Shown: one piece after another, positions 1,340 to 59,172 of the stretch
How the letters are laid out: every line of letters starts with the position of its first letter
Position numbering within the stretch: position 1 is the first letter of the stretch
Source of the DNA: an uncultured Candidatus Saccharibacteria bacterium
GTDB taxonomy: Bacteria; Patescibacteriota; Minisyncoccia; Phycocordibacterales; Zambryskibacteraceae
Direction: 5' to 3'
NCBI GenBank assembly: GCA_964618905.1
Contig: CAZUDK010000002.1
Coordinates: forward strand, 482 to 64,481
Length of the DNA stretch: 64,000 nucleotides
Translations under genes and position numbers: made by a program
Notes under the pieces: model-generated
What the model was told of the DNA's origin: nothing
The model's database searches: none
The model's input: the letters and a program-made list of their open reading frames with translations, nothing else

Positions 1340-2686
1340 ATGAACTACAAGGAATTATGGAAGGGGGTTTTGGTGGAAATCGAGCTTGGTGTTTCTAAAG
1401 CAAACTTCACCACCTGGTTTAAGGATACTCATATAGTTAAAGAAGAAGGAGGGGTGGTAGTGCTCTCAGTGCCTAATGCCTTTGTTAAAGAATGGCTGCT
1501 GACAAAGTACCACAACACCATCCTTAAATCTTTAAGAAATATAAACAGTTCTATAAGTGCGGTTGAGTATGTAGTTAATAAAGAAGAGTCTCGCCGGCGT
1601 GAAGATAGGGGAATGATGGAGGTTGGAGGCACCAGGGAGCTGCCACTTGAATCATCTCAAATAAACAAGAATGACAACTTAAATCCAAGATACACATTCG
1701 AGACTTTCGTAGTTGGACCATTCAACGAGCTAGCTCATGCCGCTGCCCAAGCCATCATTAAAAAGCCTGGGATTATGTACAACCCACTCTTTATATACGG
1801 CTCCACTGGACATGGTAAGACACACCTCATTCAAGCTATAGGCAACCATGTAAAGACTACCAATCCAAACAAGAAGGTTTACTACATGACTTCCGAACAG
1901 TTCGGCCAAGACTGCATGAACGCTCTCCAAAACCAAAAAATGAGTGTTTTCAAGGAAAAATACCGCCAATATGATGTTCTTATCGTAGATGATATCCAAT
2001 TTTTCTCTGAAAAACAGAAATTCCAAGAAGAACTGTTCCATTTGTTTAATACCCTCTATGACAACAATAAACAGATTATTTTCTCTTCTGATAAACACCC
2101 TCATTTCATAACAGGCCTTGAAGACAGACTTAAATCCAGAATGGCTGCAGGTATGACCGTAGACATACCAACACCAGACCAGGAATCCAGGATGGCTATT
2201 CTTTCTAAGAAAGCAGCCCAGCAAGGACTTCCTTTATCAACTGAGGTCCTAGACTTCCTGGCCAGCACCATCAATGGCAACATTAGAGAGCTTGAAGGTG
2301 TTATAAACACCTTAGCCGTACACTCACAGCTCAAAGGGAAGGAGATAAACATCTCGGATGTTAAAAATTACATAAAGAACAATGCTAAACCTAAAAAAAT
2401 AGCTGCTGTTAAGGATGTGGTTAAGATTATCTCTGATTTCTACAATATTGAAGAAGAAAGTATTTACGAGAAGACTCGGCGAAAGGAAGTTATAAAACCC
2501 AGGCAAGTCATAATGTATATCCTTAGAGAGGATTTCAATATTTCCTATCCATCTATCGGTCAAAAACTTGGAGGAAGAGACCACACTACTGTTATTCATT
2601 CTTGTGAAAAAATTAAAGGAGATATAAAAGAAGATCACACACTGCTGCAAGAAATAGGTCAGATAAGGAATCTTTTAGCTGTCTAA
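1340..2686 (+). CDS. dnaA: Chromosomal replication initiator DnaA
   Basis: 448 aa; Walker A GSTGHGKTHL, Walker B IVDDIQF, C-terminal DNA-binding domain. Confidence 0.95.
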   Translation: MNYKELWKGVLVEIELGVSKANFTTWFKDTHIVKEEGGVVVLSVPNAFVKEWLLTKYHNTILKSLRNINSSISAVEYVVNKEESRRREDRGMMEVGGTRELPLESSQINKNDNLNPRYTFETFVVGPFNELAHAAAQAIIKKPGIMYNPLFIYGSTGHGKTHLIQAIGNHVKTTNPNKKVYYMTSEQFGQDCMNALQNQKMSVFKEKYRQYDVLIVDDIQFFSEKQKFQEELFHLFNTLYDNNKQIIFSSDKHPHFITGLEDRLKSRMAAGMTVDIPTPDQESRMAILSKKAAQQGLPLSTEVLDFLASTINGNIRELEGVINTLAVHSQLKGKEINISDVKNYIKNNAKPKKIAAVKDVVKIISDFYNIEEESIYEKTRRKEVIKPRQVIMYILREDFNISYPSIGQKLGGRDHTTVIHSCEKIKGDIKEDHTLLQEIGQIRNLLAV

Positions 2687-2888: not shown

Positions 2889-3995
2889 ATGAAAATAGAA
2901 TGCATTAAAGAAAGACTTGGGGAAGCTGTGGTTAAGGCTGAAAAAATTGCTGGTAAGAATACAACTCTGCCTGCTCTTACTGGATTGTATTTAAATGTTA
3001 AAAATAATTCTTTAAACATTAAAGCTACTAATTTAGATATAGGCATTTCAATAAACATTCCCGTCAAAGTTATAGAGCCCGGAGAAATTGTTGTTCCGGC
3101 AAGTGTCTTGTCGTCTCTTATAAACTCTCTTCCTGATGATAAAAACATAACCATCTCGACTTCTTCAGACAATCAAGTTCTTGATATAAAAACCCAATCG
3201 ACAAAAACCGAGATAAAAGTTCTTCCAAGTGATGATTTTCCAATTATCTCTGAGATTAGTGATGATAAAGCTTTCTCCTTGCCAGCCAGAGACCTTGTAT
3301 TTGGCCTGAAATCAGTCATATACGCAGCTGCAGCAGGGAGTATAAAGCCAGAGCTATCTTCCATATCAATAACCTACGGAGACGGCGTTTTAACATTTGC
3401 TGCCACAGACTCATTCCGTCTTGCTGAAAAGAAAATCAGGACGAAGAAAGTACCTCATTTCAAGCAAATCCTTCTACCTTATAGAAATGCAGTCGAAATA
3501 ATAAAAATCCTTGATAAGGGAGAAACAGAAATATCAATATCCATAGAAGAGCACCAATTAGCTCTGCATTCAGAAAATATTTATATAACTTCCAGAATAA
3601 TAGAGGGAACATTTCCTGACTACAGGCAAATTATTCCGAAAGGTATCAAATCAAAAGCAGTTGTACTAAAGCAAGACCTGATAAATTCTCTTAAAACCAG
3701 CCTTATATTCTCTGATGCGTCTAATCAGATGACGCTGCATATCAGCCCAGCTAAAAATGTTTTCGAAATAGAATCAAAAAACAGCAATGTGGGTGAAAAC
3801 AAATATTCACTCGAAGCAACTCTTGAAGGGGAAGAAATAACTATTAGCGTAAACCATAGATATTTCACCGATTGTTTCTCTTCTATAAATGCAGACAGTA
3901 TCTCTTTGGAATTTGCCGGTGAATCAAGGCCAATACTTATAACACCAATAGGAGATACCAGTTTCTTGTATCTTGTGATGCCAATGAATAGGTAG
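2889..3995 (+). CDS. dnaN: DNA polymerase III beta sliding clamp
   Basis: 368 aa, three-domain clamp architecture, directly after dnaA. Confidence 0.9.
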   Translation: MKIECIKERLGEAVVKAEKIAGKNTTLPALTGLYLNVKNNSLNIKATNLDIGISINIPVKVIEPGEIVVPASVLSSLINSLPDDKNITISTSSDNQVLDIKTQSTKTEIKVLPSDDFPIISEISDDKAFSLPARDLVFGLKSVIYAAAAGSIKPELSSISITYGDGVLTFAATDSFRLAEKKIRTKKVPHFKQILLPYRNAVEIIKILDKGETEISISIEEHQLALHSENIYITSRIIEGTFPDYRQIIPKGIKSKAVVLKQDLINSLKTSLIFSDASNQMTLHISPAKNVFEIESKNSNVGENKYSLEATLEGEEITISVNHRYFTDCFSSINADSISLEFAGESRPILITPIGDTSFLYLVMPMNR

Positions 3996-4282: not shown

Positions 4283-6466
4283 TTAGTTCCCTTCAGTCGA
4301 GGGAACTGATGGAATGATAGGTAGTGTTTGGATCTGTTGGTAAGGATAGTACGGGTTAGCTTGGTTTTGGTTGTTTGGAACAAGACCGTTTCCATAACCA
4401 TTAGCTATTGCCCAATTACGCACAGAATACTCCCAATTCGAGAACTGAGGATCTGCAGAAGGGTTTGCCGGCAGCGGTCCTCTAGGGTTGTCTTTGTATA
4501 CTTTGTAGAGAATGCTGTGTACACCACCGCTTAACCAGTCGCCTCGCAAGACGGGTTTTATGTCTTGATCTACCGGCTCTGGATCAGGGAAGGATTCTGC
4601 TGGCAGGTCTGGCAAAATAGCATCCATAAATTCTCTCCACATAGGAGCTACAACAAGCCCGGAAACCTTTCTAGCCATGGATGTGTTGTCGTTGTTTCCA
4701 GCCCATGTTGCCACAGATATATTTGGCGTATAACCAACTATCCACGCATCTCTGTAGTCGTTAGTGGTACCGGTCTTTACGGCCACATCTCTGTCAGGGA
4801 AGTATAGAGGTGAGTTTGCTCCATATAAAGGTATGCGTGCCACATTATCAGAGAGAATGTCTGAAATCTGTCGAGAAGTTTGTTCAGAAAGAACTCGTCT
4901 TGGAAATGGAGTGTGACTTTCAATAATATCTCCATCTGCCGATTCAATTCTTAAAATAGGATTGTATGGATTGCGGACACCATCATTAGCAAATACAGAA
5001 TAAGCAGAAGCCATATCAAGAGGAGAGACTTCACCACCTCCAAGAACCAAAGAAAGGCCAAATCTTCCTTTGTCTTGAAGGCTCTCTATGCCCATGTTTT
5101 TAGCAAGCTCTACAGAATCATCAAAACCTGCCAAGTACAGAGCTTTTACTGCCGGCACGTTCATAGACTGAGCTAGAGCATTTCTGACTGTTACAGGCCC
5201 CACAAAGCTATTGGTGTAGTTGTCTGGTGCGTAGCATTTATCATCGCTAACTCTGCTTGTAGGGCTGCAGGTTGCTCCAAACTGGGTAGGAACATCAAAT
5301 AAGATAGTGTCGGGAGTATAGCCCTTGTTGAAAAGCTCTGCGTACACGAATGGTTTGAAAGATGAACCCGGTTGCCTGTGAGCAGTAGCGACGTTAAAGT
5401 TGCCTTGCACTTCATCATCGAAATAATCTCTTGAGCCGACCATCACCAAAATATCTCCAGTCTTTGGATCAACAGCTACGAAAGCATCGTTTTTACCATT
5501 GAATTTTTCTTCGTTTATTTTGCCGTATTTCTTTGCTATCTCCTGAGCCTTCAATTGCATATCGTAATCTAGGGTGGTAATAACCCTAAAACCACTGTTT
5601 TGCAGAACATCCTCGCCATATTTATCCACCAGGTAATCTATAACAAAGAAAACAAAGTGCGGAGCTTTGATGCTGTTCGTGTTTTCTCTTGGTTTGAATT
5701 CCACCTTTTCTGTTAAGGCGCTGTTGTATTCTTCTTCGTTTATAAAACCAAGGTCAAACATGTTCTTCAGAACCAGATTCTTTCTGTATTCCAATTCATC
5801 CGTATGTTGCCCGTAAGGGGAGTAATAAGTTGGGGCCTTAGGAATGGCAGCAAGGTATGCCGCTTCTGCAAGGCTTATATCATCCGCACTTTTACCGAAG
5901 AAGCCTTGGGCAGCTTCTTCTATGCCGTAAATATTTCCTCCATAAGGAATTTCATTTAGATATATGTTGAGAATTTCATCCTTAGGCAAAGCTTTGTCCA
6001 GCTTTAAGGCAAGAATAAGCTCTTTAAGTTTTCTAGTCGGAGTCTTGGCTTTGGTTAAGATGGAGTTTTTTACAACCTGTTGGGTTATGGTTGAACCACC
6101 TTGGCTAAATGAGAAGGAGGTGAGGTTTGCGATGACAGCTCGCAAGAAAGAGCTTGGCTTGAAGCCGTGGTGCTCGTAAAAGTCCTGGTCCTCTATGGCA
6201 ATAGTTGCCTGCTTGGCATAGGGAGAAATTTCATCAAAATCGACCGCAACCCGCCTTACATCCTGAGACAAATCATAGAGAAGCACTTTTCCGGTTCGGT
6301 CATATATTTTTGTCGACTGGGATTCTCGTCTTTCAGACAAGTCATCAAGAGCGGGGATGCGCAAAGAAGCCACCCATAGGAAAAAGAATCCAGACAATAT
6401 AAGAGCCGCCGTCGCGGCCATCAAAAGTATGTTGCGCTGCTTGTTTTTCTTCCTTCTCTCCTTCAT
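4283..6466 (-). CDS. Class A penicillin-binding protein (transglycosylase + transpeptidase)
   Basis: 727 aa; GT51 motifs (EDQDFYEHHG, GGSTITQQ), transpeptidase SGSSFKP (SxxK); N-terminal signal anchor; Pro/Tyr/Asn-rich C-terminal tail. Confidence 0.9.
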   Translation of the reverse strand: MKERRKKNKQRNILLMAATAALILSGFFFLWVASLRIPALDDLSERRESQSTKIYDRTGKVLLYDLSQDVRRVAVDFDEISPYAKQATIAIEDQDFYEHHGFKPSSFLRAVIANLTSFSFSQGGSTITQQVVKNSILTKAKTPTRKLKELILALKLDKALPKDEILNIYLNEIPYGGNIYGIEEAAQGFFGKSADDISLAEAAYLAAIPKAPTYYSPYGQHTDELEYRKNLVLKNMFDLGFINEEEYNSALTEKVEFKPRENTNSIKAPHFVFFVIDYLVDKYGEDVLQNSGFRVITTLDYDMQLKAQEIAKKYGKINEEKFNGKNDAFVAVDPKTGDILVMVGSRDYFDDEVQGNFNVATAHRQPGSSFKPFVYAELFNKGYTPDTILFDVPTQFGATCSPTSRVSDDKCYAPDNYTNSFVGPVTVRNALAQSMNVPAVKALYLAGFDDSVELAKNMGIESLQDKGRFGLSLVLGGGEVSPLDMASAYSVFANDGVRNPYNPILRIESADGDIIESHTPFPRRVLSEQTSRQISDILSDNVARIPLYGANSPLYFPDRDVAVKTGTTNDYRDAWIVGYTPNISVATWAGNNDNTSMARKVSGLVVAPMWREFMDAILPDLPAESFPDPEPVDQDIKPVLRGDWLSGGVHSILYKVYKDNPRGPLPANPSADPQFSNWEYSVRNWAIANGYGNGLVPNNQNQANPYYPYQQIQTLPIIPSVPSTEGN

Positions 6467-6522: not shown

Positions 6523-7926
6523 ATGAATGTAAACGATCTAGAAGAGCTTTTCACCCGCGGGGTTGGAGAATTTATCGATCCTGAAGATTCTTTCAAGAAC
6601 AAAGTTATAAAGAAAGCTGCTGGAGAGTACGATAAAGATATTGTTATAAAGCTTGGAGTAGATCCTACTAAGCCGGATATACATTTAGGTCATGCGGTCA
6701 TTCTCCGCCGCCTAAGGCAATTTCAAGATGTTGGATGTAAAGTAGTTTTTCTTATAGGAGACTTTACCGCCCAGATCGGCGACCCTACAGGCAAGAATAA
6801 AACTCGGCCGGAATTAGAACAATCAAAAGTTGCTGAAAACGCTGAGACTTATATAAATCAAGTTAGCAAGATACTGCGAACGGACAAAGAAGTTTTTTCT
6901 TGGATAAGAAATTCTGACTGGTTTACCAACATCACAGATCTGAATCTGCCTGAAGACTACAAGATAAGTCTGGATATAACTTCCGGCGGCAATACAATCA
7001 AGGCGCCCATTTCCCCGAAGTCGTTTGTAGGGAAGGCTATTGCCTATGAGCGTTCACGCATGCAGATACAAGACCTTGGACTTAAAGATAAAGTGTCGGT
7101 TATAACCCTCTCTGGTTTTCTTTGGACGCTTAAACACATTACTTACAGCAAGATTATAAACAGAGACATGTTTCAAGAGAGAATAAAGTCCGGAGAAGAG
7201 CTTTATATGCACGAGATGATGTACCCAGTTCTTCAAGGCATAGACTCTTCGGTTCTTTCTGAAGTATACGGCTCATGCGACCTGGAAATCGGCGGTACCG
7301 ATCAAACCTACAACATGCTTATGGGCCGAGACATCATGAAGTTTAATTCTCAGGAGCCTCAGTCTGTGATGGCTTTAAAAATAATTCCTGGACTGGACGG
7401 GGTAGAGAAGATGTCCAAATCTTTGAACAACTACATTTCCATAACCGATGAGTCTGGTGATATGTTTGGCAAAGTTATGTCTATTCCCGACAGCTCTATT
7501 GTGGATTATTTCACCTTGGCTACTTATACACCTATGACAGAAGTAAAGGATCTTCAAAGCAGGCTGGATAGCGGCAAGGAGAATCCTAGAGACATAAAAC
7601 TAAGATTAGCTAAAGAAATAGTTTCTATTTACCACGGAGAAAAAGAGGCTGAAAAAGCAGAAAATAATTTTATTGAAACTTTTTCCAAAGGAAGTGTACC
7701 TAAAGACATAAAGGTGGTTAAAACAGTTTCAGGCTCTAAACTCGGCGATCTACTTGTTTCAGAAGGGGTGGTGCCGTCCAAGACTGAATGGAGAAGGCTG
7801 GTTGAAGATGGAGCTGTCAGCAATATGGATTTAAAGGAAAAGATTTCTTCTCCAGATGCTAAGGTTTCCGAAAATACTACATATAAAATAGGCAAGCATC
7901 GGTTTATAAGAATAGAAATACTTTAG
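6523..7926 (+). CDS. tyrS: Tyrosine--tRNA ligase
   Basis: 467 aa; HIGH-type motif (PDIHLGHA), GDFTAQIGDPTGK, KMSKS, C-terminal S4-like domain. Confidence 0.75.
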   Translation: MNVNDLEELFTRGVGEFIDPEDSFKNKVIKKAAGEYDKDIVIKLGVDPTKPDIHLGHAVILRRLRQFQDVGCKVVFLIGDFTAQIGDPTGKNKTRPELEQSKVAENAETYINQVSKILRTDKEVFSWIRNSDWFTNITDLNLPEDYKISLDITSGGNTIKAPISPKSFVGKAIAYERSRMQIQDLGLKDKVSVITLSGFLWTLKHITYSKIINRDMFQERIKSGEELYMHEMMYPVLQGIDSSVLSEVYGSCDLEIGGTDQTYNMLMGRDIMKFNSQEPQSVMALKIIPGLDGVEKMSKSLNNYISITDESGDMFGKVMSIPDSSIVDYFTLATYTPMTEVKDLQSRLDSGKENPRDIKLRLAKEIVSIYHGEKEAEKAENNFIETFSKGSVPKDIKVVKTVSGSKLGDLLVSEGVVPSKTEWRRLVEDGAVSNMDLKEKISSPDAKVSENTTYKIGKHRFIRIEIL

Positions 7927-7940
7927 CTTTGTAAGCAATA

Positions 7941-7985
7941 AAAAACAGCCCCCACATACATGTATGTGGGGGCTGTTTTTAAAAC
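7941..7985. terminator. Bidirectional rho-independent terminator (perfect palindrome cagcccccacatacatgtatgtgggggctg flanked by A5/T5)
   Basis: Between convergent tyrS (+) and the ruvC operon (-). Confidence 0.8.
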
Positions 7986-23870: not shown

Positions 23871-23943
23871 GGGCGATTAGCTCAGTTGGTAGAGCAATCC
23901 GTTTACACCGGAAAGGTCGGGGGTTCAAGTCCCTCATCGCCCA
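23871..23943 (+). tRNA. tRNA-Val (anticodon TAC)
   Basis: GGGCGATTAGCTCAGTTGGTAGAGC...anticodon loop TTTACAC...GGTTCAAGTCCCTCATCGCCCA. Confidence 0.85.
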
Positions 23944-24172
23944 CAACGACTCGCGAGAAGAGCGAGCAAGCTCTTCGAGTGAAATGTCGTTTTGTAGCGA
24001 AGAGGTACTTGAAAGCCGGAGCGCGTCGGCGCGAGGCGGGGTCGAGCAAATTTTCAGCAGAAAATTATGCGTGACCAAGTCCCTCATCGCCCACCATGCT
24101 CCCTGTCGCTAAGGCGGCGTGAGCTGCACTCGGATATAATGAACGAGCCAGCTCCTTCATTAATCTTCGTTT
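23944..24172. repeat. Structured GC-rich spacer holding a 19-nt copy of the tRNA-Val 3' end (24076-24094) and repeat copy A (gcgtcggcg...aattttcagcagaaaattatgcgtg...gctccct)
   Basis: Exact 19-nt duplicate caagtccctcatcgcccac; hairpins gaagagc/gctcttc and aattttc-agca-gaaaatt; homologous to 55855-55950. Confidence 0.6.
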
Positions 24173-24244
24173 GCTCCCGTAGTTAAATGGATATAACGAC
24201 TCCCTTCTAAGGAGTAGTTCTAGGTTCGATTCCTGGCGGGAGCA
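24173..24244 (+). tRNA. tRNA-Arg (anticodon TCT)
   Basis: GCTCCCGTAGTTAAATGGATATAAC...anticodon loop CTTCTAA...GGTTCGATTCCTGGCGGGAGCA. Confidence 0.85.
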
Positions 24245-24245
24245 C

Positions 24246-25555: not shown

Positions 25556-25658
25556 CAAAAAACCGAGGGTTTTCGAGAAGTTCTAGTCCTCTACGTGACC
25601 AAGTCTTCTGATAATGATATAAAAGAATTCCCGCTAGGCTATAATTAGCTGGCAAGAT

Positions 25659-25731
25659 GGTGCCTATGGTGTAACGGTTAACACTCAAGTTTGTGGAACT
25701 TGCAATTCGGGTTCGATTCCCGGTAGGCACC
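25659..25731 (+). tRNA. tRNA-His (anticodon GTG) with encoded G-1
   Basis: G-1 pairs with discriminator C73; U8; D-stem GTGT/ACAC; anticodon loop TTGTGGA. Confidence 0.8.
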
Positions 25732-25735
25732 CAAG

Positions 25736-25924
25736 ATACAAAATTGATTGTCCTTTCTAATGAAGGGCAATTTTGTTATCTTAAGAAAAGCTAAACGGGA
25801 ATCGAACAGGAAGGGGGTCGGGGAAACTCTAGTTTCCCCGTGGAGGAAGGCAGGGCGAAGCCCGTCGGAAAACCGAGGGTTTCCGAGGAGTGAGATAGCG
25901 TAGCGTCCCGGTAGGCACCCAAAA
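25736..25924. repeat. Spacer downstream of tRNA-His: hairpin (ggggaaac/gtttcccc), module aaaaccgagggtt(t/c)ccga(g)gag (also at ~25557), and a 17-nt duplicate of the tRNA-His 3' end at 25906-25922
   Basis: Direct repeat tcccggtaggcacccaa at 25718-25734 and 25906-25922. Confidence 0.55.
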
Positions 25925-26509
25925 ATGAAAATAATTGGAATAGATTTGGATGATACTCTTCTTAACTTGAATGGAACATTCATCAAATTCCTTAACTTAA
26001 ATTATGATACGGCTTATGCAAGAGAGAATTTAACTTCTCCATTTTTTGAGGAATCTTTTGATATTACTAAAGAAGATGTATTGAAAAGGCTGCATGAATT
26101 CTATAACTCCGAACACCATGCAGAAGCAGAGCCTATCGAAGGCGCTCCAGAAGCTCTGGCAAGATTAGCTGAGGCAAATGAACTTCACATTGTTACAGCT
26201 TCGCCGGAAGAGATGAAAGATAGGATTGAGGCATGGTTAGGGAAGAATTTTACAAACAGGTTTAAGGGAATTCACTTCACCAGGAAAAGCATTTTTGATA
26301 ACTCAGTGAGAAATAAGAAGGACATTTGTGCAGAACTGGGGATTGAAGTGTTTATAGATGATGCTTTGCATAATGCTGAGGATATATCTTCAGCTGGTAT
26401 ACCTGTTTTTCTTCTGGATTCACCTTGGAACCAGAAATCAATAAATTCTCCTCTTGTAACTAGGGTTCATTCTTGGGATGATATAATTAATAAACTAGCA
26501 ATAAACTAG
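25925..26509 (+). CDS. HAD-superfamily 5'(3')-deoxyribonucleotidase-like hydrolase
   Basis: N-terminal IGIDLDDTL (DxD motif), FIDDALHNAE. Confidence 0.6.
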   Translation: MKIIGIDLDDTLLNLNGTFIKFLNLNYDTAYARENLTSPFFEESFDITKEDVLKRLHEFYNSEHHAEAEPIEGAPEALARLAEANELHIVTASPEEMKDRIEAWLGKNFTNRFKGIHFTRKSIFDNSVRNKKDICAELGIEVFIDDALHNAEDISSAGIPVFLLDSPWNQKSINSPLVTRVHSWDDIINKLAIN

Positions 26510-38609: not shown

Positions 38610-38650
38610 TAGCAGCCGGAGCGCATACGCGCTCCGGCTTTATGTTTCAG
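38610..38650 (+). terminator. Rho-independent terminator (agccggagcgc-atac-gcgctccggct + TTTATGTTT)
   Basis: Perfect 11-bp GC stem. Confidence 0.8.
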
Positions 38651-51272: not shown

Positions 51273-51473
51273 ATGAAACAAGACTACTTCAAAGAAAATA
51301 ATATAGGACACATCGACTACAAGGATGTTGATACACTTAGGAAGTTTTTGACTACGCACGCGCGCATTCAGTCTCGCAAGAGAACAGGCATTTCTTCAAA
51401 GCATCAGAGAGAGCTTTCGGTTGCAATAAAGCGCGCTCGCTTCCTTGGCCTGCTTCCTTACGTCTCAAGATAG
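51273..51473 (+). CDS. rpsR: 30S ribosomal protein S18
   Basis: 66 aa; [14 protein letters not shown]...GLLPY. Confidence 0.9.
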
Positions 51474-51563
51474 GCGTCATAGAGTAGACTAGAGCAAAAT
51501 AGTACGAAAAACTTTGCAAAGTTTTTCGTACTATTTTGTTTGTGTAGGCCTGTTACTCTGATT

Positions 51564-55760: not shown

Positions 55761-55854
55761 CTGTAAATAATTTGTGTATTCATCATATCACAGGCTTGAA
55801 GACAGAAAGAGTATTTAAAACAAAAAGGAATAATGATTTTCGTGCCTTGCGCAG

Positions 55855-55950
55855 CCGCGTCGGCGGCGAGCAGAGCAGAATTTTCAGCAGAAAATTACGC
55901 GTGCAAAGAAAGTCTAATATTGCTCCCTAGATAGCTAGGTAGTGTCTTTG
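55855..55950. repeat. Repeat copy B (gcgtcggcg...aattttcagcagaaaattacgcgtg...gctccct), homologous to 23944-24172
   Basis: About 55-100 nt of shared sequence, including an identical 18-nt hairpin aattttc-agca-gaaaatt. Confidence 0.55.
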
Positions 55951-56867: not shown

Positions 56868-57261
56868 GCGTGCCTATAGAGTATCAACATAGATTCTTCT
56901 TGCTTAAATGGCTTAAATAGATTACTATTGATGAGCAGATAGCCCTGCTAGGCTGCCTCATTTGAGGGTAAGTCATTGCATAATGACCACAGGCTCTAAC
57001 ATGGTTATCCACAAGTAATTTAACGTTTATTTCATACTCATCCTATAATGGATGAGTGCGAATTGATTATTATTGGGCTTACTTGCACACCTATTAAACT
57101 GACGCGCATTAGCGCAGGCCTTAGGCCAACGGTTTGATAGGTGTGCAGGCTTGCCGGCAAAGGCTTATCCGTTGTCGGCAATTAATACCCGCTTTGCAAC
57201 CTCTACGAATTATTAGAAATCATTGAGGAAGCAACAGCGCATTAAAAAAATAGAATTACAA
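56868..57261 (+). promoter_or_regulatory. Long structured 5' leader / candidate cis-regulatory RNA upstream of the surface-protein gene
   Basis: Hairpin actcatcc-TATAAT-ggatgagt; 11-bp long-range helix tgcacacctat/ataggtgtgca enclosing gcgc/gcgc and ggcc/ggcc hairpins; gccggc palindrome. Confidence 0.4.
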
Positions 57262-59172
57262 ATGATTAGAACAAAAATCGCAACGATCGGCCTCAGCATG
57301 GCACTCGTTCTTGGCGTTGCTGTTACACCAGCATCCGCTCAGAGCATTGCAGAGCTTCAGGCTCAGATCAATGCGCTTATGGCACAGCTTGCCGCACTGC
57401 AGGGAGGAACCACAGTTTCAACTGGAGTTACCTTTACTCAGGATTTGACCATCGGCAGCACTGGTGCAGAAGTAACTGCTCTTCAGCAGATGCTTGTTTC
57501 TCAGGGTTACCTTGTTATGCCGCAGGGCGTAGCATTTGGTTACTTCGGTTCTCTTACTCAGGCAGCTGTGGCTAAGTGGCAGGCAGCAAACGGAGTTTCT
57601 CCTGCAGCTGGCTACTGGGGTCCTGTTTCTAGGGCTCGCGCAGCAGCTCTTGGTGTTACCGGCGGTACAACAACTGGCGGTACAGTTACCGGCGGTACAA
57701 CAACTGGCGGTACTATCAGCACTCCTGGTGTAGAGGGTACTCTTTCTGCAGTTCTCTCATCTGAGGGTTCTGGAGCAGAGCTTAGCGAAGGTGAAAACAA
57801 GGAGGTTGTCATGGGCATTGAGCTCGAGGCAGACCAGTCTGACATCCGCGTTGAAAGAATTCAGGTAAACCTTGATACTACTGAGGATGAAGACTTCTAC
57901 AGAGACTTCGCAGACAAGATCTACATTATGAGCGGAGACACCGTTCTCGCTTCTCGCGACATTGATGACGATACCGTAGTAGAGGATTCAAGTGGAAACC
58001 TATCCATTACCCTCTCTGGTATGAACTTCGTTGTTGCTGAGGGTGAAGAAGAGGTTATCACTATTGCTCTTGACGCTCTGTCGAACATCGACTCAGCAGA
58101 TGAGGGTAAGACATTGTCTCTTACAATCCCAGTTAACGGTATCCGAGGTGTTGACGGAGCAGGTATCAACGAATACGCTCCTGACACTGCTATCACTCAG
58201 TCCTTTGACACTGAGGGTGTAACAGCAGGTGATCTTGACCTTTCTGAAGGTGACACTAATCCTGATGTAAACTCAGTTGTCTTCATAGACGAAGATGAGG
58301 AAACAGAAGGAGTTCTGATGCTCGCTTTCGATCTTGAGGCAAATGATCAGGATGTAACTGTTGATGACATTCCAGTTGGATTCACATCTGCTGGTGATGA
58401 AGTTGACGGTGCAGCAAACCGCATCATCCTTAAGAGAGATGGTAAGACCATTGACAGCATTAGCGTTCCTGCTTCTGCAGGCATGTTCTACCTAGCAACC
58501 TTCGATAACCTCGATGAGGATATTGATGAGGGTGATACAGCAGAATTCGAGGTTTATGTTGACCTCAACGATGCTGATCTCACAACATTTGCTTCTGGTA
58601 CAACCATGTACGCTACTACAACAGCTAGCGACTCTGGTTGGGATGTCGAGGATTCAAACGGCGACGATGTAACACCGGATGGTGGTACAGTTACTGGCGG
58701 AACTATGACCTTCCGCACAGGTGGACTCTCAGTTGAGTCTAGAAGCACCAGTGCACAGTCATTCCCTCAGGAGACTGTAGCTAACAGCTACGCTACCTAC
58801 ACTATCTCCTTTGACGTAACAGCATTCGACGACGATGCATACATCTACAACGGTGCAGCATCATCTACTGCAGCAAGCACTGCAAGCCAGGGTGTTGGTT
58901 ATGACATCGAAGGTGGATGGACAGGTGGTACAGAATCCCCTGTACTCAGCTCTACAGCTGATACAAGCGGCAGCTACTTCGTAGTTGAAGAGGGCCAGAC
59001 AGAGACATTCACTCTCACTGTAACCCTTAACGCAACTACAACTGGTACTTACGCAGTTGAACTCACTGACGTTGCTTCTGCAACATCAGCAACTGAAACA
59101 GGCAGCGTAAGCACTGTAGTTGACCAGGACGATCAGGCATTCCAGACTGACTTCGTCTACATCCCTTCCTAA
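57262..59172 (+). CDS. Secreted surface protein: signal peptide, coiled coil, peptidoglycan-binding domain, Gly/Thr linker, acidic Ca-binding-like β-rich C-terminus
   Basis: The track start at 57223 is TTG; ATG at 57262 gives MIRTKIATIGLSMALVLGVAVTPASA. PG_binding_1-like block at about aa 80-140; D-rich DxDxD segments. Confidence 0.6.
   Translation: MIRTKIATIGLSMALVLGVAVTPASAQSIAELQAQINALMAQLAALQGGTTVSTGVTFTQDLTIGSTGAEVTALQQMLVSQGYLVMPQGVAFGYFGSLTQAAVAKWQAANGVSPAAGYWGPVSRARAAALGVTGGTTTGGTVTGGTTTGGTISTPGVEGTLSAVLSSEGSGAELSEGENKEVVMGIELEADQSDIRVERIQVNLDTTEDEDFYRDFADKIYIMSGDTVLASRDIDDDTVVEDSSGNLSITLSGMNFVVAEGEEEVITIALDALSNIDSADEGKTLSLTIPVNGIRGVDGAGINEYAPDTAITQSFDTEGVTAGDLDLSEGDTNPDVNSVVFIDEDEETEGVLMLAFDLEANDQDVTVDDIPVGFTSAGDEVDGAANRIILKRDGKTIDSISVPASAGMFYLATFDNLDEDIDEGDTAEFEVYVDLNDADLTTFASGTTMYATTTASDSGWDVEDSNGDDVTPDGGTVTGGTMTFRTGGLSVESRSTSAQSFPQETVANSYATYTISFDVTAFDDDAYIYNGAASSTAASTASQGVGYDIEGGWTGGTESPVLSSTADTSGSYFVVEEGQTETFTLTVTLNATTTGTYAVELTDVASATSATETGSVSTVVDQDDQAFQTDFVYIPS

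Follow-up and report, generated by a model that had tools for sequence, protein, structure and literature searches.

The spacer between tRNA-Val(tac) and tRNA-Arg(tct) contains a second, exact copy of the 3′ end of the tRNA-Val gene, and a short stretch of non-coding DNA lies between the two copies. Is this insert the scar of a larger element that once integrated into the tRNA gene, a structured RNA, or a small element in its own right? We analyzed the locus within the window (the whole stretch of 64,000 nucleotides under study) and compared it with related loci from other genomes.

Anatomy of the tRNA-Val insert and of related sequences in the window

The repeat CAAGTCCCTCATCGCCCAC is a 19-mer present in exactly two copies in the window, for a chance expectation of 0.01; two matches were obtained in none of 100 shuffled sequences. 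It spans the tRNA from C56 of the T-loop to the discriminator A73 and includes one base of the trailer. The exact duplication had been noticed in a first, sequence-only reading of this DNA, together with its placement in the Val-Arg spacer, and both were verified, the placement by ARAGORN and Rfam (Table 1). The upstream copy S1 completes an intact tRNA-Val. The downstream copy S2 pairs with the antisense arm A, so that a long stem closes the core; the next bases in the genome are CA, giving the reading ...CCCACCA.

According to the predicted fold, the 5′ module h of the insert has a tandem GA/GA internal loop and an apical stem GAAGAGC/GCTCTTC. The first 15 bases of arm A are an imperfect reverse complement of the repeat start (C56, the T stem, and into the 3′ strand of the acceptor), and its last two bases (AA) complement T54-T55 of the T-loop. 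This arm, GCGAAGAGGTACTTGAA, had been missed by the sequence-only reading, as had a duplicated 3′ end at tRNA-His described below. In the core, the hairpin hp2, AATTTTC-AGCA-GAAAATT, is followed by A(T/C)GCGTG. The two perfect hairpins reported earlier, this one and the apical stem of h, are thus both present. The insert together with S2 folds far more stably than shuffled sequences (z = -6.5) because arm A is antisense to the tRNA end. A G+C content of 60 to 75% had also been given for the insert; we measured 53% for the 131 bp, against 43% for the window, and only the sub-block 24012-24048 rises as high as 76%. The junction between core, S2 and flank was reproduced in an independent Logan assembly of SRR11843827. 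That assembly ends within hp2, which is the expected behaviour at a repeat.

Additional copies were searched for in the window. The 25-mer AATTTTCAGCAGAAAATTAYGCGTG occurs at 24049 and 55879 only (chance expectation 0). R1, a covariance model built from the core plus short arms, matched 24004-24083 with 98 bits and 55837-55907 with 41 bits (E about 1e-8), and found nothing else convincing. This confirms the earlier observation that the module recurs about 32 kb away. The second copy shares hp1, hp2 and the ACGCGTG end with the Val copy. It lies within an imperfect palindrome between divergent genes and has no linkage to a tRNA. The palindrome 51462-51542 and the hairpin 38621-38645, both weak matches to the model or the repeat, were rejected as plain hairpins.

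A comparable layout around an unrelated core was found 1.8 kb from the tRNA-Val insert, at a tRNA-His(gtg) gene whose 3′ end is duplicated over 17 nt. No further copies of this core were detected in the fetched loci. The same layout around a different core indicates that the layout belongs to the insertion process and not to one sequence family. Furthermore, the trailer of tRNA-Leu(gag) harbors a 5′-truncated remnant, in which a 23-nt module common to the His insert precedes ACGTGAC/CAAGTCTTCT. Judged by its sequence, this junction is the end of an element followed by a decayed copy of the T-loop and T stem of tRNA-Leu.

Table 1. Positions of the tRNA genes, repeats, arms and structural modules in the window
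Feature	Position	Strand	Evidence or remark
tRNA-Val(tac), intact, source of the upstream repeat copy	23871-23943/44	+	ARAGORN; Rfam tRNA model, 68.9 bits
S1, direct repeat copy 1	23926-23944	+	exact 19-mer, two occurrences in the window
Insert between S1 and S2, 131 nt, non-coding	23945-24075	+	
h, 5′ hairpin module AACGAC...GTCGTT	23945-23991	+	fold; homologous to modules behind Trp and Ser tRNAs
A, antisense arm GCGAAGAGGTACTTGAA	23997-24013	+	13/15 positions pair with S2
Three-way-junction core, 3′ end GCGTGAC	24014-24075	+	covariance model R1, 98.4 bits; covariation counts
hp1 hairpin of the core	24021-24032	+	
P3 stem of the core	24040-24048 paired with 24068-24076	+	
hp2 hairpin AATTTTC AGCA GAAAATT	24049-24066	+	
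S2, direct repeat copy 2, displaced tRNA-Val 3′ end	24076-24094	+	3′ strand of stem P1 with A
tRNA-Arg(tct), downstream neighbour, outside the element	24173-24245	+	ARAGORN, Rfam
5′-truncated remnant in the tRNA-Leu(gag) trailer	25559-25609	+	
tRNA-His(gtg) insert, comparable layout, unrelated core	25718-25922	+	
S1′, 17-nt 3′-end repeat of tRNA-His	25718-25734	+	
Hairpin of the tRNA-His insert	25733-25782	+	
Antisense arm ACGGGAATCGAAC of the tRNA-His insert	25795-25807	+	
G+C-rich core of the tRNA-His insert	25808-25905	+	
S2′, 17-nt 3′-end repeat of tRNA-His	25906-25922	+	
Second family member, type B	55837-55907	+	R1, 40.7 bits, E about 1e-8; sequence; fold

A tRNA-linked family with a covarying core

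With one genome per species as target, a scan for the exact 23-mer of the core, TTTTCAGCAGAAAATTAYGCGTG, matched at least 114 loci, far beyond the two copies of the window. The matches listed included 80 loci from 71 assemblies, and several genomes were multi-copy. Their labels were Kaiser-, Nomura-, Taylor-, Wildermuth-, Zambryskii- and Moranii-bacteria, Paceibacterota, Minisyncoccia and Saccharibacteria, or only "bacterium". A single non-Patescibacteria label was seen among the matches listed, that of a Segetibacter-labelled MAG, which may be a binning error. The family was gathered by an exact 23-mer, so that its true diversity and range are underestimated. In 100 fetched loci, R1 gave 181 matches (E <= 0.05), the weaker of which are in part opposite-strand echoes of the same copies. 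Among the matches are diverged copies with compensatory substitutions even in the A/U-rich stem of the hairpin, its AGCA loop being kept. All copies have a core of about 62 nt in common; their flanks differ, and the flanks of each copy pair with each other. The element boundaries are alike throughout the family, with a length of about 130 nt at more than 100 loci. The Val-Arg insert is a complete member of this large conserved non-coding family of the Patescibacteria (CPR). A miniature element, one of the options raised by the sequence-only reading, was the right one.

The core folds into a three-way junction, of which P1 is made by the two arms A and S2. P2 consists of G-X-C/G-Y-C; beyond it come an internal loop, GGA/GA with tandem G.A, and a hairpin whose loop reads G-N-C-G. 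P3 (GGUCGCGCA/UGCGUGACC) is extended by the hairpin AAUUUUC-AGCA-GAAAAUU. In 40 hand-picked copies, the pair X:Y of P2 was CG in 25, AU in 9, GC in 4 and UA in 1, with one non-pair, and the hp1 stem showed swaps between GC and CG. We then counted pairs over 115 model-aligned copies. Paired cells amounted to 90.7%, compared to 69.4% in shuffled alignments, and double-sided (compensatory) changes were found in 28 of the 30 pairs. The covariation score was 0.448, against 0.124 for the shuffles and 0.03-0.07 for slid registers; a model-fitted alignment of this kind leans towards the structure, and a MAFFT alignment agrees with it. These data give strong support, at the level of structure, to the earlier suggestion of a structured family, for which covariance modelling had been proposed as a check.

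One pair of P3 is G.U in 82 copies and A-U in 14. Since a G.U pair becomes an A.C mismatch on the opposite strand, the strand that folds is the tRNA-sense strand. The unpaired nucleotides of the core are highly conserved, namely AAAG in J1/2, the GGA/GA loop, and the GACG and AGCA loops. The h modules found at Val, Trp and Ser tRNAs are homologous as well, with compensatory changes in the apical stem. This places a target-specific arm A between two conserved modules.

How tightly are the copies linked to tRNA genes? Elements of type A, at 37 loci, lie behind a tRNA gene of the same strand, with hp2 starting mostly 80-130 nt past the tRNA end. The preceding tRNAs are Leu, Ser, Trp, Ile, Val, Lys, Arg, Asp, Tyr and Gly. 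The order is constant: the tRNA, h, arm A antisense to the T-loop, T stem and acceptor 3′ strand of the local tRNA, the core (...GCGTGAC), and S2. Direct repeats of a tRNA 3′ segment, 15-22 nt in length, flank the insert at no fewer than 12 loci besides tRNA-Val. The start of the repeat is C56 in nearly all cases, with a length of 19-22 nt, and most loci share the 55/56 junction of the T-loop; at a few elements behind tRNA-Ile(tat), the junction is at the extreme 3′ end of the tRNA and not in the T-loop.

The arms are specific for the tRNA that they follow. When S2 was compared with the end of its own tRNA, 14 of 32 loci scored at least 14; of 846 comparisons with the ends of other tRNAs, 3 did. 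For arm A, the corresponding counts were 9 of 32 for the local tRNA and 3 of 846 for the others. At locus L101, the antisense arm is a perfect 21-mer. The repeats run into genomic trailer bases and not into CCA, which indicates that they were copied from DNA or from a precursor. On this ground, we rejected the idea that S2 and A derive from mature tRNA with a CCA tail, the situation at a retroviral primer-binding site. Copies of type B have no tRNA link, reside in long palindromes, and show no orientation preference with respect to the neighbouring genes. The latter argues against a cis-acting mRNA element or a riboswitch.

Signs of insertion at tRNA genes and a possible mechanism

Several observations bear on insertion. 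At loci L088 and L092, two elements follow each other in series behind one tRNA, each with its own copy of the tRNA end after it, and locus L096 carries an array of four units. Arms are truncated or diverged in some copies, with S2 truncated in L101, L106 and L065. In several loci S2 is followed by a terminator resembling the original one of the tRNA. By sequence, the element seems to have displaced the original end and terminator of the tRNA in the downstream direction. In sister genomes, identified through the neighbouring RluD (about 70% protein identity), the tRNA neighbourhood is kept; between tRNA-Val(tac) and the next gene there are 0-27 nt and no element, and nothing like the insert of the window was seen at tRNA-His in the sequence read. 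Insertion is indicated jointly by the tandem copies, the truncated remnants and the element-free sister genomes. A different outcome had been considered in the sequence-only reading, namely an ancient conserved spacer, present only twice and shared by sister genomes. It is contradicted by the copy number, the covariation and the sister genomes.

An empty site at tRNA-Val would read ...GGGGGTT/CAAGTCCCTCATCGCCCAC/CATGCTCC (slashes mark the junctions). In one metagenome scan, the predicted junction matched only unrelated tRNA-Ile(gat) genes that encode their CCA, and such matches carry no information. That scan thus gave no case of filled and empty sites within a single species, and the sister genomes are at only about 70% RluD identity.

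On balance, and with moderate confidence, we interpret 23945-24075 as an intact non-autonomous, non-coding insertion element that integrates at tRNA T-loops via a folded single strand. The element would integrate site-specifically at the T-loop of the tRNA gene through a folded single-stranded intermediate, in which the stem A:S may copy the target duplex by analogy with CTX attP and integron attC. An enzyme encoded elsewhere would catalyze the reaction in trans. Of the known processes, folded-strand integration best predicts the succession S1, body, inverted site, structured spacer and S2, which is the order observed. It would also regenerate the target and so allow tandem accretion.

Several findings count against integration of this type, the missing filled/empty polymorphism among them. 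No candidate enzyme was present among the ORFs examined near the elements, and with GC skew as a weak proxy for replication we saw no strand bias, such as a mechanism acting on lagging-strand single-stranded DNA might give. A circular or excised form was not observed either. The search for an enzyme covered several levels. All-against-all clustering of 2363 ORFs from 114 loci yielded only housekeeping clusters. A Pfam scan of the 140 ORFs nearest to the elements likewise showed housekeeping families only, and revealed no enriched family of integrases, transposases (Y1 transposases included), reverse transcriptases or Nop-domain proteins. No integrase was found in or beside the element in the loci examined, and the ten window ORFs of integrase size (263-390 aa) were all housekeeping. 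An autonomous IS related to this small, non-coding, multi-copy element was likewise not found among the neighbouring ORFs. At locus L113 two inverted copies flank ftsK and adjoin recA, which was not taken as a link to a mobility gene.

Could the element instead be primarily a structured RNA with a function of its own, derived from the 3′ trailer of the tRNA? We regard this as possible though not probable, and a mobile origin would be compatible with it. Arm A, core and S2 would together form a tRNA-like minihelix (acceptor/T) with the three-way junction as its cap. It could be released by RNase P and RNase Z, perhaps with CCA added, and act as a small RNA, as a protein-binding RNA, or as a cis regulator of tRNA maturation through A:S1 versus A:S2 pairing. 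The strong covariation and the high conservation of unpaired nucleotides argue for such an RNA, as does the strand polarity set by the G.U pairs, which is always that of the tRNA. Conserved unpaired nucleotides in the core and conserved tandem G.A motifs are expected of a functional RNA more than of a recombination site, and so also count against the integration reading. Furthermore, a recurrent UC-to-GA change in A yields tandem G.A and not a random mismatch, and S2 of the window ends in ...A-CCA. In the predicted co-fold of tRNA and element, a very stable alternative structure (-104 kcal/mol, z = -6.8), A sequesters S1 and S2 completes the acceptor stem.

Set against these points is the decay of the copies, which have mismatched arms, truncated S2 and, at tRNA-Leu, only a remnant. 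The arm mismatches comprise 62 G.U and 45 A.C, i.e. no clear excess of G.U, a count that is not decisive for selection at the RNA level. The indifferent orientation of the type B copies, a terminator-like hairpin that is often found between tRNA and element, and the absence of the element from sister genomes also speak against a functional RNA. Rfam does not help it either. At the gathering thresholds of Rfam 15 only the tRNAs were recognized in the window, and no other described RNA family, self-cleaving ribozymes and riboswitches included, was matched. With permissive settings, 23940-24110 matched four C/D-box snoRNA models and the sRNA h2cR, all below threshold and all on the opposite strand; the snoRNA matches rest on GAUGAG, which is tRNA-derived, and on CUGA.

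A fixed attP-type element is not easily squared with arms that match more than nine tRNA species. Combined with the constant h and core, this points to target-templated arms or to a guide-like A. We therefore considered a programmable, guide-bearing parasite of tRNA genes, in which A would guide an enzyme acting in trans to a matching T-loop/acceptor and the arms would be rewritten by target copying. Here A would act as a guide in RNA or in single-stranded DNA. The mobile form may be a single-stranded circle of about 150 nt, rod-shaped, with an S:A stem closed at one end by h and at the other by the core. As a whole, this scheme is unlikely in our view.

The sequence-only reading had taken the repeat for the scar of an integration into the tRNA gene. 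That it marks an insertion is upheld by the same layout behind dozens of tRNAs, by the tandems and by the sister genomes devoid of the element. Its derivation from a decayed larger element is not: the insert is a full-length, non-coding family member of about 130 nt with constant boundaries at more than 100 loci, and no integrase lies inside or beside the copies examined. An integrase-bearing island or prophage once resident in tRNA-Val, of which attL and attR are left, is accordingly quite improbable. It would fit a direct repeat of the tRNA 3′ end that starts in the T-loop, which is said to be one classical sublocation of tyrosine-integrase att sites (as reportedly set out by Williams in 2002 in Nucleic Acids Res). 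It would also fit tandem accretion at one tRNA, a behaviour known for integrative elements and their cis-mobilizable derivatives. The GCGTGAC to the left of S2 is, however, unlike the T-stem half-site expected of a duplex attP core. A phage or plasmid origin was discarded as well, since neither the IMG/VR viral contigs (three patterns) nor BLAST of phage and plasmid records returned a match.

Finally, a local replication error, in which template switching at the tRNA terminator hairpin produced an inverted and then a direct duplication and no mobile DNA was involved, can hardly be entertained: S1, h and A do form one long quasi-palindrome including the trailer (AACGAC...GTCGTT, perfect in L101) and the sense-antisense-sense order resembles fold-back template-switch products, but local errors cannot yield h and core modules that are homologous across loci, tRNA types and phylum-level lineages, nor do they suit a T-loop 55/56 junction that is constant in most loci.

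Comparison with known systems and significance

The insertion element favoured here recalls folded recombination sites. The attP(+) of the CTX phage is reportedly a folded single-strand site used by XerC/D (work attributed to Val and colleagues, 2005, Mol Cell), and the integron attC is a folded single-strand site used by IntI, whose structure is conserved more than its sequence. As in these sites, an imperfect hairpin has a stem that rebuilds the duplex target, A and S2 being paired here at 13 of 15 positions. The succession of hybrid site, body, inverted site, structured spacer and hybrid site corresponds to S1, h, A, core and S2, the target is regenerated so that tandem accretion is possible, and one defined strand folds. 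The differences concern the target, which is here a T-loop/acceptor segment of a tRNA, and the stem, which varies by locus to match that tRNA. The "spacer" is here the most conserved part and forms a three-way junction, and the body of about 50 nt has no gene. Neither GTTRRRY nor dif-like boxes were seen in the sequence; the GTTCRAN of the T-loop comes close to GTTRRRY without matching it exactly. The recombinase is known for attC and CTX, whereas none was identified for the element.

Small palindromic repeats of bacteria were compared next. REP/REPIN palindromes measure 20-40 bp, carry a GTAG or CGTC tag, and occur in genomes that also encode a RAYT. In the element, GACG (CGTC on the opposite strand) is present only as the hp1 loop and not as a terminal tag. 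The REP/REPIN-RAYT system, MITEs, Correia, RUP and ERIC (PMC10969869, PMC3184786, PMC3733652) share with it a small size, multiple non-coding, intergenic, hairpin-forming and non-autonomous copies, and the coexistence of intact and decayed copies. They are usually restricted to a genus or family, whereas the 23-mer of the element is invariant across many Patescibacteria lineages. They also have conserved terminal inverted repeats, a short target duplication or none, and no targeting of tRNA ends. In the element, the "terminal repeats" are copies of the target and the duplication is about 19 bp. Its inverted repeat (A and S2) is target-derived and varies by locus. A MITE would have conserved terminal inverted repeats and a target duplication of 2-10 bp, whereas the ends AACGAC... 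and ...GCGTGAC are not inverted repeats of each other.

Integrative elements that target tRNA genes, among them genomic islands, and their integrase-less derivatives such as cis-mobilizable elements resemble the element in the direct repeat of the tRNA 3′ end that flanks the insert, in the intact tRNA upstream, and in the accumulation of partial-tRNA arrays and decayed remnants. Such elements measure kilobases and encode, or descend from encoders of, a tyrosine or serine recombinase directed at one tRNA. The element described here has about 130 nt, is non-coding with an RNA-like fold, carries an antisense copy of its target and is found at many tRNA species. The tycheposons of Prochlorococcus (bioRxiv 10.1101/2020.12.28.424599) belong to the same group of tRNA-targeting elements.

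Guide systems offer another likeness. In IS110 bridge RNAs and TIGR-Tas arrays, the latter reported in CPR-type bacteria, a target-complementary segment also lies between conserved structured modules and both target strands are represented (PMC12045711). Their guides are 8-14 nt long, sit in internal loops and are not mutually complementary (PMC12045711), whereas the arms of the element have 15-21 nt and pair with each other, and no recombinase or Nop-domain gene is enriched nearby. The features being unlike those described in that paper (PMC12045711), a TIGR-Tas or box C/D guide array was rejected.

The element is a variant on tRNA-targeting integrative elements, small palindromic repeats and folded recombination sites, with an unusual target-matched design. 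No published description of it was found in the literature, in a search that included its literal sequence, and it appears to be undescribed so far.

The genomes of Patescibacteria measure about 1 Mb, and mobile DNA is generally regarded as scarce in them. Despite these small genomes, a module of about 130 nt with a lineage-spanning invariant 23-mer stands behind many of their tRNA genes. It is possibly among the smallest site-specific insertion elements known, and its design hints at recognition based on structure or on a guide. Its core, with covariation and no Rfam entry, is a candidate for a new family of RNA or single-stranded-DNA motifs, with a putative CPR-wide protein partner. In CPR MAGs, the repeats would account for breaks in assemblies and for "pseudogenes" made of partial tRNAs, and they may serve as markers of lineage and strain history. 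If the guide-bearing parasite were the true form of the element, it would represent a viroid-like or attC-like replicon of the CPR and a new class of targetable integration system.

A probable truncated element and a similarly arranged insert behind two other tRNA genes

Behind tRNA-Leu(gag), the trailer contains a 23-nt module, AAAACCGAGGGTTTYCGAGRAGT, which is also present in the insert behind tRNA-His(gtg). In the trailer this module is followed by ACGTGAC|CAAGTCTTCT, where an element end is joined to a copy of the Leu T-loop that has decayed. The tRNA-Leu(gag) trailer looks like a truncated element.

The tRNA-His(gtg) locus carries a 17-nt duplication of the 3′ end of the tRNA, and the two copies enclose an insert of 171 nt. 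Within this insert, a hairpin resembling a terminator is accompanied by an arm antisense to the T-arm; the core of the insert is rich in G+C and bears no relation to the Val element (the insert behind tRNA-Val). The second copy of the tRNA end abuts the start codon (ATG, 25925) of the following gene.

Coordinates of features in the window and in the fetched loci (L-numbers)
Feature	Location	Position
tRNA-Leu(gag) trailer	window	25557-25660
tRNA-His(gtg) locus with insert	window	25660-25925
tRNA-His(gtg) 3′ end, two copies	window	25718-25734; 25906-25922
448-aa ORF preceding dnaN	window	1340-2686
dnaN (DNA polymerase III beta)	window	2889-3995
649-aa ORF	window	57223-59172
15-nt tandem repeats in the 649-aa ORF	window	57655-57713; 58680-58703
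Palindrome, 40 nt	window	7941-7980
Palindrome, 44 nt	window	51495-51538
G+C-rich hairpin	window	38621-38645
Array of four units	L096, minus strand	1830-2560
20-nt palindrome in displaced tRNA copy	L081	about 4620-4650
20-nt palindrome in an element	L014	about 7620-7650
bAvd and reverse transcriptase genes	L121	3308-4724

Arrays, minimal forms and possible nested insertions

Four units are arranged in tandem in L096, each composed of a hairpin, an antisense arm, a core and a tRNA-end copy, and together they contain three differing core variants; neither a recognisable tRNA nor an Rfam RNA was found upstream of this array. A minimal form, reduced to the P3/hp2 hairpin of the core and preceded by a GAUUC-UGUAA-GAAUC hairpin, occurs in eight loci (including L019 and L094) at about 70-200 nt from rplK, the gene of ribosomal protein L11.

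In at least six loci (L003, L038, L054, L055, L090, L092), a second, tiny hairpin interrupts the duplicated T-loop of the element 3′ arm. Its stem covaries and its loop is UAMU, as in AAAG-GCG-UACU-CGC-GG, which suggests a nested insertion into sequence that resembles a T-loop. In L081, a perfect palindrome of 20 nt with the form CCTGCCTGCCGGCAGGCAGG splits the displaced copy of the tRNA; it is also present within an element in L014 and may represent another small insertion sequence.

Other hairpins and genes of the window

Two perfect palindromes, whose arms are not separated by any spacer, are both located at the ends of genes and are probably bidirectional terminators; the 44-nt one matched the element model (covariance model R1) only weakly and was rejected as a family member. 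A perfect G+C-rich hairpin, AGCCGGAGCGC-ATAC-GCGCTCCGGCT, is followed by a T-rich run and flanked by two genes on the same strand. It has in common with the element core the 12-mer AGCCGGAGCGCG, a match that may be due to chance or may be a clue to a terminator origin of the core hairpins.

The start of the window, with dnaN, may lie near the replication origin. The 649-aa ORF contains internal tandem repeats, GGCGGTACAnnnACy, encoding a short peptide repeat rich in Gly and Thr.

Independent assembly and sister genome

The exact RluD protein of the window was found on only one other contig (L001, a Logan contig from SRR11843827). This contig begins part-way through the element's hairpin hp2, which fits a break of the assembly at a repeat. 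In a sister Zambryskibacteria genome (L121), RluD and rplS flank a diversity-generating-retroelement pair, bAvd and a reverse transcriptase; this lineage therefore has reverse transcriptases.
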